From a virus (Duplodnaviria; Heunggongvirae; Uroviricota; Caudoviricetes): 7,738 bases of DNA. How positions within the stretch are numbered: position 1 is the stretch's first letter; every line of letters starts with the position of its first letter. The DNA lies in the IMG/VR virus record IMGVR_UViG_2802429219_000018, one strand, 5' to 3'. This document shows, in pieces, positions 478 to 7,738 of this stretch. The position numbers and the translations under genes were made by a program. The notes beneath the pieces are model-generated. The model was not told where the DNA came from. It searched no databases and saw only the letters and a program-made list of their open reading frames with translations.

Positions 478-2616
478 CTATTCATCCAGTTCATCATCCA
501 TAAGTAATGCATACGCTCTTAACTGCTTACCGTTCAGATGCTTTATTCTGGGTGTTCTTGTTTGCCACCCTTTACCACTTGAAGGGCGTTTAAGCATATT
601 TGCCCCATGAAGCACACTTGCAGCATGGTTTGCATCAAATCCACTTGCCACCTCGGCTTTAAAAACAGCCGGAAGAACATAAAAAGTTATAGCATCATCA
701 AGGTTTGATTTTCCTTTATTTTTATAACCAGCAAGGTTATGAATACTCATCTGGCTCAATTCATCAAAATCAACAGGTACAAAACGACTAATGCTATTTG
801 CTGTAAGAAATGATGTTGCCTGCTCAATAATCTGCTCGTTTTCCTTATTGCCTGTCCCGAACTCAGCCACCCATACATTAAAAACATGCTGTAACGCATC
901 TCGACACGCTAATGAGTCCCATCCAGTAATATGTTCAGAAAGCAGCATTGCACATTCCATAACTGCAAAACGATCCTTTACTCTATGAACTTGCTCGCCG
1001 TAATGTTGCGGAATAAGAGAATCCCATCGCTCTAACGCTCGTTTATAAGCCTCCTTCGCTTCCTGTTGATGATCTGCAAGCCATCTGATCCACTCACGAC
1101 CCGCCGCGCCATAATTTTCTTTCCATGCTGCTTCCAGTGCCTTCGCATGTTTCTCTCCATTTTCGTATCCATGAAATTCAGTTGGTCGAGATACAGGGAT
1201 ATTCAGTAATCTAACGAGCTGTCCAGCTTTTACTTTGATTCCTGCTCCAGCGAGAAAAGTTTCAATACTTTTCTCTCCTGTACTGATAACAACCGTTTCG
1301 AAATATTTAATTTCACGGTTCCCACCATCAGGACTTCCCTGTAATTTCCCTTTTCCATTAAAAAGAGTATAAGACGACGTAAATACACTTCTGGCACTGG
1401 AAGCCTGCTCTATTTCATCAAGAGCCAATAAACAGTGATTATGTGATTCTGCTTCGTTAGTTATACCCAACGCCGTTCCATACCAGGAAAGCCGTTGTTG
1501 TTTTGGAATTCCATACAGACTTGAGGCAAAATCTTCCGCAGTTGTTTTTCCCGCTGTACTTTGCGCATACAGATGCACACCAAAGCCATCAGCACCAATA
1601 ACACCAATCAGCGGGGCTGCCAGTGACGTAGCAGCCGCCAGCATCTGAAACGGGTTTTTATATGCCAATTTTGCAACATTCTCGCGCCAGCTTTCAGTAG
1701 TTCCTTTTACGCGATAAGCCAGCCTTGAGGCACTTCCTCCGGTAAACATAACTGGGGTTTCAGGCTCACCAATAACATCACCATTTGGCATGATGTAGAT
1801 GCCACCAAACCACCCGGAACGTTGTGTAGCCGTATACTGTAACCCTTTCTGAGCTTCATTCTGTATCCAGTCAGATAGAAGCTCTCTGGCCTTATTTTGT
1901 GTAGTAATTTTTAATCCCCAGTCTTTAAGGCGTGACCATCCCTGAGGGGTTCCAATCATTCCGGCTCTAATACAATGAGTAACCATTTCCCCCCTGAATT
2001 TCCAGCGTAAAGCAATAAACATTGCGTCATTTTCTCTATCAAATCCTTCGCCTAACACTTCCAGAGGTGAGCACATCCATTGACCATGGCGGGTTATCTC
2101 TCCTGAACGTTCAATTTTTGGGGTAACCCAGTACATACCTACTGGATCCGCATTTATACGCAATTCAACGTAAGGCGCCAGTTCATCGCGTGCCTGATTA
2201 CTTGCAGATTGCACAATATCCGTCATCGACACTTCTCCGCTCTCTACCTGTTCACGGATCCGTTGCAAGTAGTCGCGCCAGTTCTCCGGCTCCCGGTCGG
2301 TGATGCCTTTGTATAATTTCGCATCCTGTACGCCAGCCAGCGCCAGCTTTTCAGCAATAGCGTTGATCTGAATTGGCTCCATTTCCCCCGCGATATAAAC
2401 ACGCGCAAAGCGGCGCTCATCGTCAATAATGCGGATATTCGCCAGGTCTGCCAGTTGCTTTGGCCCCAGGTAAACAGGTGGTACGTTATCGCCGTGTTTT
2501 CGTCCTTCGCTTTCAATCCAGTGTTGAGCATGGGAGTAAGCGTCCGTCCCGGCAAAAATGATTACCTCGGTGAATTTATCCTTCGGCTGATATTTTAAAT
2601 TCGGTGCGTTTTTCAC
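478..2616 (-). CDS. Satellite replication initiator: primase/helicase-type protein with a DUF927-like core and a P-loop NTPase domain (712 aa)
   Basis: Long ORF with a GTG start preceded by GGAGG 6 nt upstream, and a 4-nt GTGA overlap with the upstream ORF's stop. The central segment GMYWVTPK...WMCSPLEVLGEGFDREN...FIALRWKF resembles the DUF927 core. Walker A-like AQSTAGKTT and Walker B-like CLLALDEIEQ are present. Cognate iterons follow the stop codon (TAG at 478-480). The family call is from memory, not from an HMM search. Confidence 0.9.
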   Translation of the reverse strand: MKNAPNLKYQPKDKFTEVIIFAGTDAYSHAQHWIESEGRKHGDNVPPVYLGPKQLADLANIRIIDDERRFARVYIAGEMEPIQINAIAEKLALAGVQDAKLYKGITDREPENWRDYLQRIREQVESGEVSMTDIVQSASNQARDELAPYVELRINADPVGMYWVTPKIERSGEITRHGQWMCSPLEVLGEGFDRENDAMFIALRWKFRGEMVTHCIRAGMIGTPQGWSRLKDWGLKITTQNKARELLSDWIQNEAQKGLQYTATQRSGWFGGIYIMPNGDVIGEPETPVMFTGGSASRLAYRVKGTTESWRENVAKLAYKNPFQMLAAATSLAAPLIGVIGADGFGVHLYAQSTAGKTTAEDFASSLYGIPKQQRLSWYGTALGITNEAESHNHCLLALDEIEQASSARSVFTSSYTLFNGKGKLQGSPDGGNREIKYFETVVISTGEKSIETFLAGAGIKVKAGQLVRLLNIPVSRPTEFHGYENGEKHAKALEAAWKENYGAAGREWIRWLADHQQEAKEAYKRALERWDSLIPQHYGEQVHRVKDRFAVMECAMLLSEHITGWDSLACRDALQHVFNVWVAEFGTGNKENEQIIEQATSFLTANSISRFVPVDFDELSQMSIHNLAGYKNKGKSNLDDAITFYVLPAVFKAEVASGFDANHAASVLHGANMLKRPSSGKGWQTRTPRIKHLNGKQLRAYALLMDDELDE

Positions 2617-3108: not shown

Positions 3109-3469
3109 GGTTCACCCCCCCCTGAATGACCTGATAACCGCAACTGGTCAGCAATTCGATAAATTCCGGCAGTGTGCCGAAACAGCAATCATCACGCAGC
3201 CGTTCGCGGGATACCTCGACGCCGTTTTCGTAGTGACTCACCATGCGTCCGGTAAAATGCAGATCATCATCGTGATGGCACGTTAACGGCTTAATCAGTC
3301 GCGCACGTTCCGCCAGTTCCAGCAATGCTTCAACGCTTCCGGCAATTGCACCATCCGGCAGGTGGTAATTACGCACTATGCGCCCGTTCTCCACATTGAC
3401 CAGCAACTGCCCGGTAAATTTCTCGTCAAACTGAATGCTGTTAAGGTCAGAAATTGACAGGTTATGCAT
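3101..3469 (-). CDS. Hypothetical 122-aa protein with two tandem copies of the 'FTG' repeat domain
   Basis: ATG at 3469 with GGAGG 6 nt upstream. It overlaps the upstream stop as ATGCATAA (3462-3469). The internal repeat is FTGQLLVNVENGRIV...GSVEALLELAERA (from aa 18) versus FTGRMVSHYENGVEV...GTLPEFIELLTSCG (from aa 72). Confidence 0.7.
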   Translation of the reverse strand: MHNLSISDLNSIQFDEKFTGQLLVNVENGRIVRNYHLPDGAIAGSVEALLELAERARLIKPLTCHHDDDLHFTGRMVSHYENGVEVSRERLRDDCCFGTLPEFIELLTSCGYQVIQGGVNHG

Positions 3470-3665
3470 GGTGCACCTCCTGGCGAATACGGGCAGCGAA
3501 TACCATCACGCAGCCATCAGGAGATTGCTGACGCGCTTCCTGTTCGCTGATGGCCTCGATGTGAATTACGCGCGGTTGTGCCGTACTCAGGGCGATAAAA
3601 CGCCAGATATATTTATTCAGGTTGTGCGAGTCCCGCCCTTGCGGGTGTGTGGTATGATTTCTCAT
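3462..3665 (-). CDS. Icd-like / Ash-like small protein, 67 aa (uses an internal start of the 331-aa track ORF)
   Basis: ATG at 3665 is preceded by GAGGT (3674..3670). The sequence MRNHTTHPQGRDSHNLNKYIWRFIALSTAQPRVIHIEAISEQEARQQSPDGCVMVFAARIRQEVHHA fits the pattern I recall for phage Icd-like proteins (aromatic-x-W/F-x-F-x-A ... A-x-SE-x-EAR ... F-A-A-R). It is the first gene of the coupled operon. The family call is from memory. Confidence 0.65.
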   Translation of the reverse strand: MRNHTTHPQGRDSHNLNKYIWRFIALSTAQPRVIHIEAISEQEARQQSPDGCVMVFAARIRQEVHHA

Positions 3666-3745
3666 AGCTACCTCGATACTGTTGCTATCGTTGGTGGTTA
3701 GAAGCCCGGTTAGTGTTAGCGCACTGCCGGGTTTCGTCGTTTTTA
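3665..3745 (+). ncRNA. Candidate ~80-nt cis-antisense RNA covering the SD/start of the Icd-like gene
   Basis: There is a plus-strand extended -10 (TG-g-TATGAT, 3650-3658) inside the Icd-like coding region, which predicts a start near 3665. The RNA has a 5' hairpin (cgata-ctgttgc-tatcg, 3674-3690) and then a plus-oriented terminator hairpin (3701-3735) with a U-rich tail to 3745. No plus-strand gene feeds this terminator. The start site and expression are untested. Confidence 0.35.
3701..3745 (+). terminator. Plus-strand-oriented intrinsic terminator-like hairpin in the leader region of the replication operon
   Basis: The stem pairs gaagcccggttagtg with cactgccgggtttc (14 pairs, one bulged U, 6-nt loop ttagcg), followed by gtcgttttta. 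Two of the pairs are G-U on the plus RNA (3704/3732 and 3711/3726) and would be C-A mismatches on the minus RNA. The U-rich tail exists only in the plus orientation. Confidence 0.45.
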
Positions 3746-3754
3746 TGAATCGAT

Positions 3755-3860
3755 CATTGTGAGATACATAGTCATCACAATGTGAGATATACATTATATT
3801 GTGGTGATATACATTGCAAGTGTTTTTATATCTCACTTTTGTGTATAGTGATATACACAT
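3755..3860. promoter_or_regulatory. Operator array and divergent promoter region between the RHH gene (+) and the Icd-like/primase operon (-)
   Basis: Five copies of GTGA(G)ATA(TA)CA: 3759-3770, 3782-3795, 3804-3815, an inverted copy at 3827-3836, and 3848-3860. They are phased at about 22 bp. An 8-bp inverted repeat CATTGTGA/TCACAATG lies at 3755-3762 and 3775-3782. A perfect minus-strand TATAAT (3798..3793) has a palindromic TTGCAA (3814-3819) 15 bp upstream. A plus-strand TATAGT lies at 3844-3849. The promoter assignments are tentative. Confidence 0.65.
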
Positions 3861-3879
3861 AACTAATTGGTGATTAACT

Positions 3880-4182
3880 ATGTCTGTATACAAAAATGCA
3901 AAATCGCAAATGACAACGATCAGGGTTCCCCACGATGTTATGGAGGGTATGGAATCCGTAAAACTGGACGGCGAAAGCAACGCCGGATTCATAGTAACCG
4001 CCATGCGTGGTGAGATCGCCCGCCGCCAGGCAGAAGGAAGAGGAGAAAATCCCCTGGTTTCTTCGCTCGATGCACTGGCGCAGGTGGAAAAAATCGGAGT
4101 CAAAGCAGCCGAGGAGATCGGGCAGCTCGTCACCGTCGCGCGTGAAGAACTCCAGCGCCGCAAGGCCAAAGAACAGGAGTAG
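3880..4182 (+). CDS. Ribbon-helix-helix-like small DNA-binding protein (YlcI/YnfO-like), 100 aa; candidate island repressor
   Basis: The N-terminal segment TTIRVPHDVMEGMESVKLDGESNAGFIVTAMRGEIARR has a strand-helix-helix pattern like the YlcI segment IRFPNQMIEQINIALEQKGSGNFSAWVIEACRRRL (from memory). The C-terminal half is charged and helical. It is the only plus-strand gene and sits next to the operator array. The antisense ORFs over it (3874-4200 and 3462-4457) are Ser/Cys-rich shadow-type sequence. Confidence 0.7.
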   Translation: MSVYKNAKSQMTTIRVPHDVMEGMESVKLDGESNAGFIVTAMRGEIARRQAEGRGENPLVSSLDALAQVEKIGVKAAEEIGQLVTVAREELQRRKAKEQE

Positions 4183-4457
4183 TTGATCAGCACCGGGCAA
4201 CCAGAAAAAATCGTATCAGTCGCGCTACCAGCAAAATTTTTTGCTTTCCGGACAGCGTGGCCAACGGCATTTTGCAGCAAAATATTCTGCATTTCTGGCG
4301 TGCTGTAGTAACGGTGATCAGCGCCTTCACATTGAACGAACTTGTCGCTAAAATTCACCCATATAGCAAACATCGCGGTGCTACAGGTAATTCGTTCACA
4401 AAGGCGCTCCGGCAACGGGGCGCTTTCTCTTTTTGTAACGGTCAGAGCGTTACACAT
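4183..4457 (-). other. 5' segment of the long minus-strand ORF: a translationally coupled start with no local stop codon
   Basis: The ATG at 4457 overlaps the ant-like stop as ATGTGTAA, with GGAGG 9 nt upstream. The first ~90 codons (MCNALTVTKRESAPLPERLCERITCSTAMFAIWVNFSDKFVQCEGADHRYYSTPEMQNILLQNAVGHAVRKAKNF...) look protein-like and have no competing gene. The frame stays open to 3462, so the 3' end is undefined. Confidence 0.3.
4401..4434 (+). terminator. Rho-independent terminator, plus-strand orientation, about 220 nt downstream of the RHH gene's stop
   Basis: aaggcgctccg-GCAA-cggggcgcttt forms an 11-bp stem (two G-U pairs on the plus RNA) with a GNRA tetraloop, followed by ctctttttg. 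The minus-strand equivalent has C-A mismatches and only a UUUGUG tail. Confidence 0.6.
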
Positions 4458-5250
4458 GGCTGTTTTCCTCCATGCGACGGGCTAACCAACGCTGCGAAAG
4501 ACGAATTAATTCAGCTTTCCGCTGGTGGTAGTCCTGGCCTAACTCAATCAGCGTGATATTGCTCTGCTCAAGGTAAGAAAGGTGCTCAAGCTGCAATGTG
4601 CTCATGTGGTCGCGTGGTTCGCCTGTGATGTCGTTCGCCTGCGCCCACTGTTTTGCAGTCATGCCACCCAGCACGATACGCGCCAGCATGTTCGCTTCCG
4701 TGGTGTAGTGGTGCTGGAGTGTGTTTTTACCCAGTTCAGCCCGGTACGCCTCCAGCGCGGCACACATTGGCTTAAAGTAGCTGGCAACTGTGATACGGGC
4801 TTTCAGTTCCCGGCGTAACGCTGCGGAACGCACTGGCGCTACCTTGTGTAGCTCCTCCTCGCATTTGATGAAGTACTGACGAACGGCGCGGCCCTGTTCG
4901 GTGCGTTCGACCATCGCCAGTTCTTTCGCCATGTTGATAGTGCTCAGGTAGTCGTGCTCTATACGTTGGCGAGATTTTGCGCTCACCGGATTGGGGGAGG
5001 TCAAATTTTCTACGAATTCAAAATCCACGCCCTTTTTAAATCCGTACTCATCAATGCGTCCTTTAATCCAGGTTGTGAAATCACGGCCTACCCCGAGCGC
5101 CTTATGCAACGCTCTGGCGCTAACAATATTGGTTTCACGCCCGCCAATAACGCCGGAAATAACCGGGATAATTTCGCCAAAATTTTGCAGATTCTGGTTT
5201 TCAGGCCGAACGAAGCCCTGCCCCTGTACGGGCGTTTTTGGAAATTTCAT
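4450..5250 (-). CDS. AntA/AntB-family phage antirepressor homolog, 266 aa
   Basis: ATG at 5250 with AGGAG 5 nt upstream. The N-terminal half (VSARALHKALGVGRDFTTWIKGRIDEYGFKKGVDF...INMAKELAMVERTEQGRAVRQYFIKCEEEL) matches the AntA domain pattern. The C-terminal half is helical and of uncertain family. Confidence 0.85.
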   Translation of the reverse strand: MKFPKTPVQGQGFVRPENQNLQNFGEIIPVISGVIGGRETNIVSARALHKALGVGRDFTTWIKGRIDEYGFKKGVDFEFVENLTSPNPVSAKSRQRIEHDYLSTINMAKELAMVERTEQGRAVRQYFIKCEEELHKVAPVRSAALRRELKARITVASYFKPMCAALEAYRAELGKNTLQHHYTTEANMLARIVLGGMTAKQWAQANDITGEPRDHMSTLQLEHLSYLEQSNITLIELGQDYHQRKAELIRLSQRWLARRMEENSHV

Positions 5251-5327: not shown

Positions 5328-5525
5328 TCAGGTAGCTGTTCCGCGTGATTCCGCAATACGCTGATTAATCCACTCGTCAATTTCACTCTCAACGAAAGCA
5401 ATCGCTCGCGAGCCAATTTTTACAGGTTTAGGAAAACGCCCTTGGGCAATGAGTTTATAGATCCATGCCCTGCCATAGCCTGTACGGCGCATGGTTTCTG
5501 GCATACGAATTAAAGATTGTGACAT
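5328..5525 (-). CDS. alpA: AlpA-family (excisionase-like HTH) transcriptional regulator, 65 aa
   Basis: MSQSLIRMPETMRRTGYGRAWIYKLIAQGRFPKPVKIGSRAIAFVESEIDEWI is the classic AlpA/Phage_AlpA signature. I chose the internal ATG at 5525 (GGGAGA about 8 nt upstream) over the track start at 5594, because that start lies inside the palindromic operator. Confidence 0.85.
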   Translation of the reverse strand: MSQSLIRMPETMRRTGYGRAWIYKLIAQGRFPKPVKIGSRAIAFVESEIDEWINQRIAESRGTAT

Positions 5526-5590
5526 GATAATCGTCTCCCGTTGTTTATTGATGCCTACGGGAGACATTGAAGCAGGTAAGACATTGGATA

Positions 5591-5629
5591 TCACCGCAAT
5601 TGCGGTGAATGATACCGCAATTGCGGTAT
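5591..5629. promoter_or_regulatory. Twin 18-bp perfect palindromes (core ACCGCAATTGCGGT) upstream of alpA; putative dimer-binding operators
   Basis: TCACCGCAATTGCGGTGA (5591-5608) and ATACCGCAATTGCGGTAT (5612-5629) are each perfectly self-complementary. Their centres are exactly 21 bp apart. They lie between the 251-aa gene's stop (5640) and the alpA start (5525). Confidence 0.7.
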
Positions 5630-5639
5630 AGGACTACAA

Positions 5640-6395
5640 CTACGATTTAATTGATTTATTGGCTTCAGCAAACTTTGCTTCCAGCGTTCTTGAACTCATC
5701 CCCGGCTTACCTTCAAAATGTCCCAATAAATTACTAATAATAGAGCTTTGATTTTCGAATACAGATTGCTTAATACCAGCAGGTGAACGCCCTAACATTA
5801 GAAAAAGCAACCCTCCAATAATGTTTAAATATGTTGTTTCAGAACGTTGGTCAATGTTTTGCACGGAGTTATCAACCATTCGTCGTAGTGAATCACGTTC
5901 CCCTTGTAATTCGGAAATTTCATTTTTCTGCTGTTGGAAAGTCTTCATAGCATTATCTAAGCGAATATTAAGACGTTTGTTTTCAGCCTGAAGAGTTTGA
6001 TATGCCTCGACTGTAATTCCAGCATGTAACTGCTGCTCAACAGCATCAAAAAGGAAAGCTGGTTTTTGGTTGGGATAGTTTTTTGACATCCATGATTTCA
6101 GATCGGAATGGCGGACGGTTAAACGGTGCTTAGCAACCTGTTCTCCAGGTTGAACAGTTTTACCATCACGGCCATAAGGAATTTCACAATTATGGATTGC
6201 ATCTAAAATTTTCTCAGCATTAACACGCAAGCAAGGCCATTGAGGGAACATTCCAACGCTAGGTAAAACTCCATCTCCCACTCGCTCCAATATTAAAACT
6301 TCATGAGCAATTAAATTACACCAACGTAGCGCCGCTTCAATTGGAGTGTAATATGCCTTTTCAAGAGAACTACAGCTTTTTGAATTGTAAGTCAC
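5640..6395 (-). CDS. Orphan 251-aa protein (N-terminal domain + coiled coil + short hydrophobic helix + C-terminal tail), function unknown
   Basis: GTG start at 6395 with GAGGT 8 nt upstream. The next Met is aa 49, so the start is uncertain. No competing ORF covers it. A heptad-rich segment spans aa ~128-175 (EAYQTLQAENKRLNIRLDNAMKTFQQQKNEISELQGERDSLRRMV). A hydrophobic helix spans aa 189-202 (YLNIIGGLLFLMLG). It is markedly AT-rich compared with its flanks. Confidence 0.75.
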   Translation of the reverse strand: MTYNSKSCSSLEKAYYTPIEAALRWCNLIAHEVLILERVGDGVLPSVGMFPQWPCLRVNAEKILDAIHNCEIPYGRDGKTVQPGEQVAKHRLTVRHSDLKSWMSKNYPNQKPAFLFDAVEQQLHAGITVEAYQTLQAENKRLNIRLDNAMKTFQQQKNEISELQGERDSLRRMVDNSVQNIDQRSETTYLNIIGGLLFLMLGRSPAGIKQSVFENQSSIISNLLGHFEGKPGMSSRTLEAKFAEANKSIKS

Positions 6396-6523
6396 TCTGT
6401 GCTACCTCGCACCCTCTGTAAAAGTGGCTGTGCCAGCCCGCAGAGGTGTACGGGTTTTCAGGAGCGACCCTAGACACAGCCTTTTCTTAATCGCTCAAAG
6501 TCTACTACTGTATACTCAACCAG

Positions 6524-7738
6524 TCACCCGCATTTTCCGAACTCACCATGCACCACATTTCCGCCATGCTCGAGCGAATCCATATAATCGGCGTACCACT
6601 GAAGCATTTCCCGCCGTCCATCCAGATATTGCGCATGGTTGTATGTGCCACGAATTGAGTTTTTATCGACGTGTGCGAGCTGCGTCTCTATCCATGCGGT
6701 GTTATAGCCCTGCTCATGCAAAATGGTGCTCATGGTGTGCCGGAATCCATGACCAGTAACCTTTCCGTTATAGCCGATGCGTTTAAATACTTGGTTTATG
6801 CTAGCCTCGCTCATTGTTTTCCTTGGATCATTACGGCCGGGAAACATAAGCGGATAATTGCCAGTTAATTCTTTAATCTGCCCAATAAGAGAAAGAGCCT
6901 GCTTAGACAAAGGCACCACATGAGGGCGACGCATTTTCATCCGTGAAGCAGGTATCTCCCAGATAGCCTTGTTGAGATCGATTTCATCCCATAATGCACC
7001 GCGCAGTTCGCCAGTTCGCAAACCAGTGATAATCAGTAGACGAGCCGCCATAACAACCAATGCACTTCCTGAGTAACTGGACAATGCCTTGAAAAAATCA
7101 GGCAATTCTTTGGCTGTGAGGAAAGGATAATGATTAGATTCATGGCCTTGCATCGCGCTAGTAAGATCTGGGGCAGGGTTATACTCTGCGCGACCAGTGA
7201 CTATTGCATAGCGGAAAACTTCCCCACACCGCTGCCTCACTTTTTTGGCTTTTTCTGTAGCACCGCGCCCCTCGATGCGTCGCAGCACATTCAGAAGTTC
7301 AAGTGGTTTGATTTCGGCGATTGGTTTTTTGCCAATGTAAGGGAACACATCTTTGTTGAAGGCTTCGAGGATGTCTGAAGCATAACCAGCAGACCATTTT
7401 TTTAATTTGCTGCTGTGCCACTCAAGGGCAATATCTTTGAAGGTGTTGTTTAACTGCGTTTCCCGGGCAATCTTTTCCTCTCGTTTCGCTTCCATCGGAT
7501 CGATACCCCCAGCGATACCCCTTTTAGCTTCTTCACGTTTTGCACGAGCATCAGCCAAGGTAACTTCAGGATACACACCTAGTGCTAACAGCTTCTCTTT
7601 ACCAGCTACACGATACTTGAAGCGCCAATATTTTCCTCCACTAGGTTTTACCAAGAGATACAGACCACCACCATCAGCCAGCTTGTAAGCCTTCTCTTTT
7701 GGCTTGGCAGTGTCTATTTGACGGGCATTGAGTTTCAC
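6524..7738 (-). CDS. int: P4-type (DUF4102 N-terminal arm) tyrosine integrase, 404 aa as read; 5' end coincides with the window edge
   Basis: The N-terminus ARQIDTAKPKEKAYKLADGGGLYLLVKPSGGKYWRFKYR is typical of the P4/CP4 integrase family. Catalytic motifs are TGLRTGELR, GHGFRHT and RGTYNHAQY, and GEVFRYAIVTGRAEYNPAPDL is shared with IntS-like integrases. The first codon in the window is GTG. The true start may be here or a few codons beyond the window. Confidence 0.9.
   Translation of the reverse strand: MKLNARQIDTAKPKEKAYKLADGGGLYLLVKPSGGKYWRFKYRVAGKEKLLALGVYPEVTLADARAKREEAKRGIAGGIDPMEAKREEKIARETQLNNTFKDIALEWHSSKLKKWSAGYASDILEAFNKDVFPYIGKKPIAEIKPLELLNVLRRIEGRGATEKAKKVRQRCGEVFRYAIVTGRAEYNPAPDLTSAMQGHESNHYPFLTAKELPDFFKALSSYSGSALVVMAARLLIITGLRTGELRGALWDEIDLNKAIWEIPASRMKMRRPHVVPLSKQALSLIGQIKELTGNYPLMFPGRNDPRKTMSEASINQVFKRIGYNGKVTGHGFRHTMSTILHEQGYNTAWIETQLAHVDKNSIRGTYNHAQYLDGRREMLQWYADYMDSLEHGGNVVHGEFGKCG

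Follow-up and report, generated by a model that had tools for sequence, protein, structure and literature searches.

What does the single gene between int and alpA do in a small integrative island, and how is it connected with the two palindromes that follow it? We asked this of a 7,738-nt Caudoviricetes record, IMGVR_UViG_2802429219_000018 (hereafter the window, meaning this whole stretch), in which a 251-residue open reading frame (ORF), here called X, separates the two genes. The ORF is real, as the first-pass annotation of this DNA had stated; that annotation left two readings side by side, an anti-phage cargo gene or a regulator of the island itself that acts on the twin palindromes. The second is supported by the family to which X belongs, by the conservation and covariation of the palindromes and by the geometry of the promoter. 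We consider it probable that X is a BisR-family transcription factor controlling the alpA promoter of an island that resembles the phage-inducible chromosomal islands (PICIs). The three genes at issue are the following.

6524-7738, minus strand: int, tyrosine integrase, first gene of the island (Pfam Arm-DNA-bind_3, Phage_int_M and Phage_integrase).
5640-6395, minus strand: X, bisR-like gene, 251 amino acids (aa), GTG start (ORF; 706 homologues; relatives at the bisR position of ICEclc-family elements).
5328-5525, minus strand: alpA, 65 aa, AlpA/HTH_17 regulator (Pfam Phage_AlpA, E 2.5e-19; coordinates as in RefSeq relatives).

The description of X as an orphan did not survive a wider search. 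Among 5.8 billion proteins we found 706 homologues at E<=1e-3, a genome scan with one genome per species placed relatives in 171 species, and the exact X protein occurs on 957 contigs. Beyond the Enterobacterales, most of the homologues listed are 52-60% identical over the full length and 250-255 aa long. Gene context was counted in 80 species loci, 77 of which hold enough downstream sequence, by a single-query phmmer search. Directly 3' of X, on the same strand, an alpA-type gene is present in 57 of the 77, and in nine of ten phmmer misses that were sampled the first small downstream ORF gave Phage_AlpA or HTH_17 Pfam matches. An integrase gene stands directly upstream in 22 of 69 loci. On these counts the conserved unit is X-alpA, which frequently takes the form int-X-alpA. 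The order int, X, alpA recurs in a marine metagenome, Klebsiella and Comamonadaceae, with a Toprim/DUF927 primase next in the latter two, and X is conserved as the partner of alpA in Gamma-, Beta- and some other Pseudomonadota. X keeps its position in related islands and behaves as a core gene, a finding that goes against the cargo reading on that reading's own terms. In two loci the gene 3' of the bisR-like gene is not alpA but a 281-301-aa gene with the N-terminus MSKL(F/Y)(T/K)LK(Q/E)W..L.DAA (L031, 6711-7556; L073, 6718-7623). The L073 copy matches the window X at E 1e-18 and is possibly a tandem paralogue; in L031 X itself also has a replaced C-terminal domain.

Which family is this? A second group of homologues, from Pseudomonas, Xanthomonadales, Pandoraea, Thauera and others, is 39-43% identical to X (tblastn E 3e-53 to 1e-51), and in this group no directly upstream integrase was detected. 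One of its loci, L068, reads MFS transporter, LysR regulator, X, alpA and ParA, with a DUF2857 protein farther along. The regulatory region of ICEclc, an integrative and conjugative element (ICE), consists of tciR (LysR), bisR, alpA, parA, shi, bisD and bisC (DUF2857) (PMC7423338), and the L068 gene order is the published one. Sequence landmarks agree with this placement. The exact ICEclc bisS-3 sequence, CTTCGGAtTCCGAAG, is present in 16 loci, about 4.3-4.5 kb past the X stop in loci that hold the full 6-kb flank, and the bisS-1/2 core, GAGCTATCCCCnGGGGATAGCTC, is present in nine, about 4.9-5.9 kb past the stop; in ICEclc these are the BisD binding sites, bisS-3 in orf96323 and bisS-1/2 in inrR and ssb. 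In L068 the stops of the genes at the bisD and bisC positions lie 3115 and 3693 bp from the X stop. The ICEclc orf numbers 101284, 98147 and 97571 differ by 3137 and 3713, which would fit these distances if the numbers mark gene ends.

The ICEclc protein (orf101284, CAE92957.1; Pseudomonas knackmussii B13; Carraro et al., eLife 2020, PMC7423338) has 251 aa, no Pfam domain and three low-confidence predicted domains, and is encoded on a single-gene transcript (PMC7423338). BisR is widespread in Beta-, Alpha- and Gammaproteobacteria, is required for transfer and, acting alone in ICE-free cells, drives very strong expression from the alpA promoter, PalpA. X shares with it the length of about 251 aa, the lack of a Pfam domain, the three-part build and the location directly upstream of alpA on the same strand; it is homologous over its full length to the bisR-position genes of ICEclc-family loci, and its likely target is the same, the alpA promoter. 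BisR-family membership is supported here by homology and synteny. The settings differ. ICEclc is a conjugative element, whereas the window belongs to an int-alpA-primase, PICI-like island; here X is preceded by int and an int-alpA RNA instead of TciR/LysR, and no parA-shi-bisDC feedback module follows. A Pfam scan and the RefSeq annotation revealed no LysR gene, parA, ParB-like bisD or DUF2857 bisC in the island. Identity between the window X and the ICE-type members is only about 40%.

If X is a regulator, where does it bind? The candidate operators are two perfect copies of the 14-bp palindrome ACCGCAATTGCGGT, at 5614-5627 and 5593-5606, 21 bp apart from centre to centre.

5612-5629, no strand assigned: candidate operator site 1, ATACCGCAATTGCGGTAT, core 5614-5627, at about -62 from the predicted alpA start.
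5591-5608, no strand assigned: candidate operator site 2, TCACCGCAATTGCGGTGA, core 5593-5606, at about -41, overlapping the predicted -35.

In its 18-bp form site 1 begins 10 nt past the X stop codon (11 in the first-pass annotation, which had seen both copies). No further copy of ACCGCAATTGCGGT occurs in the window at up to three mismatches, and at least two such palindrome matches arose in 10 of 200 shuffles. The arrangement is a property of the family: twin dyads are found within 75 nt of the X stop in 63 of the 80 species loci, against 9 of 1532 random 75-nt control windows from the same loci. The family dyads are 12-14 bp long, start 2-20 nt past the X stop and have centres 20-21 bp apart. 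Lineages differ in the dyad sequence but share its symmetry, copy number and spacing.

ACCGCA-NN-TGCGGT: Enterobacteria and many Beta- and Gammaproteobacteria.
GACCGTATCTGCGGTC with ACCGCATTTGCGGT (ACCGCA-NN-TGCGGT class): L068-type ICE loci.
ATTGCA-N-TGCAAT: Pseudomonas.
ACTGCA-NN-TGCAGT: further ICE-type loci (e.g. L043, L055, L064).
ACCCTA-NN-TAGGGT or CCCCA-NN-TGGGG: several lineages.
ACCGAATTCGGT, TTGTGAACTCACAA, ATACTAATTAGTAT and GGTAATTACC: a few loci each.

An alignment of 49 non-identical loci, anchored on the centre of site 2, places a promoter next to the palindromes. Its consensus runs from site 2 as ACcGcAacTGCgGt, 7 nt and CcGCAatTGCggTGaCT; a TT.AAT motif comes next, 29-34 nt away from the site-2 centre, and site 2 is followed by GTGA across the anchored loci. 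Two features of the window correspond to this region.

5566-5594, minus strand: predicted alpA promoter, with -35 GTGATA (5589-5594), a 17-nt spacer and -10 TTCAAT (5566-5571).
5533-5565, minus strand: hairpin GTCTCCCGT...ACGGGAGAC, an inverted repeat with the alpA Shine-Dalgarno sequence in its 3' arm.

In the predicted hexamers, 8 of 12 positions agree with the consensus. A weak -35 element with sites at about -41 and -62 is the arrangement that would be expected of an activator contacting RNA polymerase, and this geometry agrees with the action of BisR as a potent activator of PalpA. By analogy, X would be an activator in this island too. The hairpin has a 9-bp stem (-17.3 kcal/mol, z -4.3), and none of 200 shuffles was as stable. 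The 5' arm includes the predicted PalpA start (about 5558-5559), so that read-through transcripts from int or X would mask the alpA ribosome-binding site and transcripts from PalpA would not.

How might X recognize these sites? The AlphaFold model, built on 35 homologues, is alpha-helical with a mean predicted local distance difference test score (pLDDT) of 82, and it bears out the three-part build proposed in the first-pass annotation.

6045-6362, minus strand: N-terminal domain of X, aa 12-117, the most conserved part (AlphaFold).
5859-6041, minus strand: central helix, aa 119-179 (61 residues), a single helix in the AlphaFold model with weak coiled-coil family matches.
5646-5849, minus strand: C-terminal three-helix domain, aa 183-250 (AlphaFold helices H183-201, H216-227 and H235-250).

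Searches of X against Pfam, PHROGs, PADLOC and NCBIfam gave nothing beyond sub-threshold coiled-coil matches, and a PDB profile search returned only coiled-coil chains at E>0.2. The N-terminal domain reaches 70% mean column identity across classes; a search of 1.84 billion representatives with its profile gave 353 clusters at 50% identity, almost always with the domain at the N-terminus of proteins of 230-270 aa. It bears a weak Xis/MerR-like winged-helix resemblance, a faint echo of the excisionase/MerR flavour noted previously that does not establish it. The central helix has variable, coiled-coil-like alignment columns, and we propose that it is a dimerization element. Helix 3 of the C-terminal domain begins at S234-S-R-T-L. 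In the model, the hydrophobic stretch YLNIIGGLLFLML, formerly read as a possibly membrane-active helix, forms the first helix of the C-terminal bundle (pLDDT about 90); at its length it could not span a membrane.

Variation within the family suggests that the palindromes are read by the C-terminal domain and not by the N-terminal domain. Where X combines another C-terminal domain with the standard N-terminal domain, the palindromes are unusual (L019, L021-L023, L025, L026, L044); where it combines another N-terminal domain with the standard C-terminal domain, ACCGCA..TGCGGT is kept (L049, L059, L060, L076, L078, L086). Among standard C-terminal domains, every half-site ending in GCA (CCGCA, TTGCA or CTGCA) is paired with a helix 3 that opens x-R-T-L. 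The arginine, Arg236 in window numbering, is replaced by S, T or A in seven loci, and there the half-sites are CCCTA, CCCCA or a CCCCG/CCCCT variant; by nearest-neighbour identity the seven represent at least five separate lineages. The operator sites of L037 and L010 were read by eye. AlpA itself is disfavoured as the reader: L043 and L048 have AlpA proteins identical over the 62 C-terminal residues compared and differ in operator (ACTGCA versus ACCGCA) and in X, and very different AlpA subtypes are paired with the same ACCGCA..TGCGGT operator. From the domain replacements, the constant-AlpA pair and the Arg236 covariation we infer that the C-terminal three-helix domain reads the DNA, with helix 3 as the candidate recognition helix. 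The coiled coil would supply the dimer, since a palindrome requires one. The N-terminal domain does not track operator class, for which reason it may instead sense a signal or contact RNA polymerase.

Upstream of X, the 128-nt spacer between int and X is conserved among enterobacterial relatives and contains a known RNA motif.

6412-6480, minus strand: int-alpA RNA motif, Rfam RF02996 (cmscan 49.8 bits, gathering score 35.8; full model, 1-71 of 71).

The outer stem of the element carries a compensatory G-C to A-U change. A branched stem is followed by a U-rich tail and AGGG, in the window CACUUUUACAGAGGG, ending 16 nt before the GTG of X, and the 3' tail of the Rfam model shows the same U-run followed by AgGG as a conserved feature. 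The RNA lies directly upstream of X in L001, L009, L010, L015, L018, L020, L021, L028, L049, L060, L092 and L095, and in the window and 12 related loci 15-30 nt separate its end from the start codon of the bisR-like gene or from that of an unrelated gene, alt-1, which it precedes in the E. coli islands L002, L088, L090 and L091. At the gathering score, none of the ten ICE-type loci tested contained it, and some int-linked loci lacked it as well. The 3' tail looks like a U-tract plus a ribosome-binding site, and on this basis the element is probably the leader of the regulator in this slot, the terminator of int, or both. The match to RF02996 is full-length and lies in the int-alpA interval after which the motif was named; the Rfam entry lists a small RNA candidate, whereas a leader or terminator is suggested here. 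A literature search found no functional study of RF02996, and inspection of the int-X spacer by eye revealed no LexA-type inverted repeat.

Does the slot between int and alpA always hold X? Among 184 E. coli genomes sharing the flanks, X is present in eight. The other listed entries spanning both flanks also have a single gene between int and alpA, except that alt-1 is split in two once, and in the seven relatives opened the slot gene encodes 237-265 aa. At least two other types of coiled-coil gene, alt-1 and alt-2, occupy the position in E. coli islands.

L002, 9227-9446; L088, 527-731; L089, 527-785; L090; L091: alternative slot regions, with the same integrase.

The alt-1 family (P0151; 43 matches, almost all in Enterobacteriaceae; 255-265 aa) has a variable N-terminal domain, a central coiled coil and a very conserved C-terminal domain; alt-2 (L089) has 237 aa. 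Each type comes with its own repeats upstream of alpA, three to six copies of a TACCCT(T/G)AGGGTA-type palindrome for alt-1 (P0151 sites TACCCTTAGGGTA) and TGGTGGTTAC/GTAACCACCA-type repeats for alt-2. The alt-1 islands also have an analogous hairpin, ATTACCTC...GAGGTAAT, before alpA (L002, 9227-9290). Distant homology to BisR was rejected both for alt-1 (no BLASTP match; hhalign probabilities of 0.6% and 7%) and for alt-2 (no BLASTP match; hhalign 0.15%), and an impression that the N-terminus of alt-2 resembles a type-2 N-terminal domain was not supported by the same searches (0.15%; no BLASTP match). Between alt-1 and alt-2 there is weak C-terminal similarity only (E 8e-6). AlpA of X islands and AlpA of alt-1 islands share 78% identity, with every difference in the N-terminal half. 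The matched repeats and these AlpA differences define the exchanged unit as the regulator gene, its operators and the 5' half of alpA, while integrase and leader RNA stay in place. The content of the slot therefore does vary among E. coli islands, as a cargo slot would, but what is swapped is a regulator together with its operators. This resembles an exchange of immunity regions rather than a defence hotspot. As in lambdoid immunity regions, a regulator and its operator set are exchanged as one unit, here along with the adjoining 5' part of alpA; the differences are that the proteins are unrelated to CI or Cro and that the characterized BisR member is an activator, not a repressor. In the relatives, recognizable cargo (RnlA toxin, TonB receptor, methylases) lies beyond the primase and not in the int-alpA slot.

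The island around these genes is a mosaic. On the minus strand the order is int, X, alpA, antA, small phage-type genes including DUF4222, and a DUF927 primase. The integrase has P4-type arm-binding, central and catalytic domains (Pfam), and RefSeq relatives have tRNA-Gly and actS just beyond int; a tRNA scan found no tRNA in the window itself.

4450-5250, minus strand: AntA-domain gene, antA (Pfam).
3880-4182, plus strand: YlcI/YnfO gene (library scans).
478-2616, minus strand: DUF927 primase (library scans).

The low GC content counted by hand in the first-pass annotation reproduces, with 36.7, 33.3 and 41.7% for lines within X against 60.0 and 51.7% for the comparison lines. X as a whole has 39.2% GC (29% at third codon positions), compared with 46.0% for the window, 47.4% for int and 52.6% for antA, and is the lowest-GC gene of the window. 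That it was separately acquired holds in part: the composition and the swapping between E. coli islands speak for acquisition, whereas family-wide X is a core partner of alpA. Near-identical DNA is present in eight of 5426 complete E. coli genomes, where the copies adjoin tRNA-Gly/actS and continue with ProQ/FinO, PerC and SieB-type genes, and an identical copy of X is found in an Escherichia ruysiae genome. The order int-alpA-pri is the layout of Gram-negative PICIs (PMC6092414), and we conclude that the host element is a small integrative, PICI-like island of roughly 15 kb with an int-alpA-primase backbone. The product of antA has an AntA/AntB antirepressor N-terminal domain (Pfam E 1e-22; PHROG anti-repressor Ant), and a candidate defence model of PADLOC, PDC-S22, matches its C-terminal part (E 3e-10); in Klebsiella relatives a Bro-N protein takes the place of antA after alpA. 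A 331-aa ORF (3462-4457, minus strand) overlaps the plus-strand ylcI/ynfO gene and is probably spurious. At 3600-3900 the GC content is 39% between divergently oriented genes; this drop and the divergent flanks make the interval a likely second regulatory region of the island. Related islands of Klebsiella, Gilliamella and Laribacter encode a C4 antisense RNA 3' of alpA (L092, 12089-12329; L021, 8778-8981; L028, 8139-8225), those of Klebsiella and Gilliamella also isrK, and L092 has a c4-a1b1 target, together the immunity RNA set of the P4/P1 type. No C4/isrK-type RNA matched the window at the gathering score.

Several points weigh against X as a BisR-family regulator of alpA. The link to CAE92957.1 runs through synteny and the published bisS sites instead of direct alignment, and membership rests on homology to the genes at the bisR position. 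The island has neither bisDC nor the LysR gene, so its circuit differs from that of ICEclc; the absence of the TciR-BisR-AlpA/BisDC cascade bears on the circuit rather than on the family of the protein. The hexamers of the promoter are weak, and a sigma-70 scanner with a threshold of 9/12 did not call PalpA. For the C-terminal helix-turn-helix, no library domain or solved structure lends support, and the assignment is based on covariation and secondary structure. Its association with the operators may also reflect recombination linkage, since the two are only about 20 bp apart, an objection that weighs less on the constant-AlpA pair and the Arg236 changes than on the domain replacements. Finally, a site overlapping the -35 element would suit a repressor as well. 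X might then occupy the twin sites as an Stl-like master repressor until a helper-phage protein binds the N-terminal domain and releases it. Gram-negative PICIs have no known repressor and their alpA induction depends on the helper phage (PMC6092414), and X, lying downstream of int, could be expressed in the integrated state. We nevertheless regard a repressor as unlikely: the characterized family member is a strong activator of PalpA, poor -35 and -10 elements with sites at about -41 and -62 are the classic surroundings of an activator, and the U-tract RNA before X suggests restricted rather than constitutive expression.

Satellites are known to carry defence genes near int. The low GC of X and the different slot contents of E. 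coli islands with the same integrase would suit a single-gene anti-phage or abortive-infection effector riding as variable cargo. This we consider extremely unlikely, since no PADLOC-DB family matches X at E<=1, X keeps its place and its partner in islands ranging from E. coli to marine and Comamonadaceae ones, relatives stand at the bisR position and a regulatory homologue is known in ICEs, matched operators and part of alpA move with the gene, and recognizable cargo sits after the primase instead. We think it highly unlikely that X acts as an accessory of excision or recombination directionality, cooperating with Int by way of an Xis-like N-terminal domain. What of the database names? RefSeq and UniRef label members of the family "protein kinase", "ATP-binding protein" or "receptor protein-tyrosine kinase", and the names are all that speaks for such an activity. 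No kinase or nucleotide-binding family of Pfam or NCBIfam matches X even at E<=1, which leaves the names unfounded, and the alpha-helical three-part model has no kinase among its fold matches. The labels look like propagated misannotation, and we give a kinase or ATP-binding function practically no credence.

Based on these observations, we propose a model in which a BisR-like activator switches on alpA expression. The int-alpA RNA just upstream of the start codon would gate the synthesis of X. X would dimerize through its central coiled coil, and each dimer would read one 14-bp palindrome through the C-terminal helix-turn-helix domain. Two dimers could then occupy one face of the DNA, centred at about -62 and -41 and in contact with the weak -35 element, and, by analogy with ICEclc BisR, recruit RNA polymerase to alpA, while the conserved N-terminal domain would receive a signal or contact the polymerase. 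AlpA would then switch on the excision and replication programme of the island. In EcCICFT073, AlpA is the activator that starts the island cycle (Fillol-Salom et al., ISME J 2018, PMC6092414). PICIs of that type share the int, alpA and pri-rep backbone with the window; the EcCICFT073 work describes no island-encoded factor above alpA, whereas the window and its relatives have a dedicated regulator with operators at PalpA. No paper in the searchable literature joins BisR with PICI or satellite terms, and BisR papers, as far as searchable, mention no binding site. Four elements of the model appear to be new: the occurrence of the BisR family in small int-alpA-primase islands with neither bisDC nor TciR, a candidate operator and its placement against the promoter, the assignment of DNA reading to the C-terminal domain with a candidate specificity residue, and the link between the Rfam int-alpA RNA and a bisR-like gene.

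What are the implications for the family and for the islands that carry it? A protein family present on thousands of contigs and labelled as kinase or ATP-binding without a supporting domain can be annotated correctly. BisR, previously described only from ICEclc-type elements, is extended to small integrase-AlpA-primase islands, among them PICI-like satellites found in E. coli and Klebsiella, and acquires a proposed operator and DNA-binding domain, defined by palindrome class, spacing, promoter position and Arg236. The int-alpA RNA, an orphan Rfam motif, gains a context as the apparent leader of X. X becomes a concrete candidate for the step that switches on alpA in Gram-negative PICIs. As a tentative extension, which we hold to be possible rather than probable, the BisR-like protein may be the missing link from helper phage to island induction in a large class of small int-alpA-primase islands, the PICI-like satellites of Gamma- and Betaproteobacteria, with infection sensed by the N-terminal domain or the leader RNA, the C-terminal domain firing the alpA promoter, and alt-1 and alt-2 serving as interchangeable sensors. 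If this is true, the alt-1 and alt-2 cassettes with their own operators would give islands different helper specificities.

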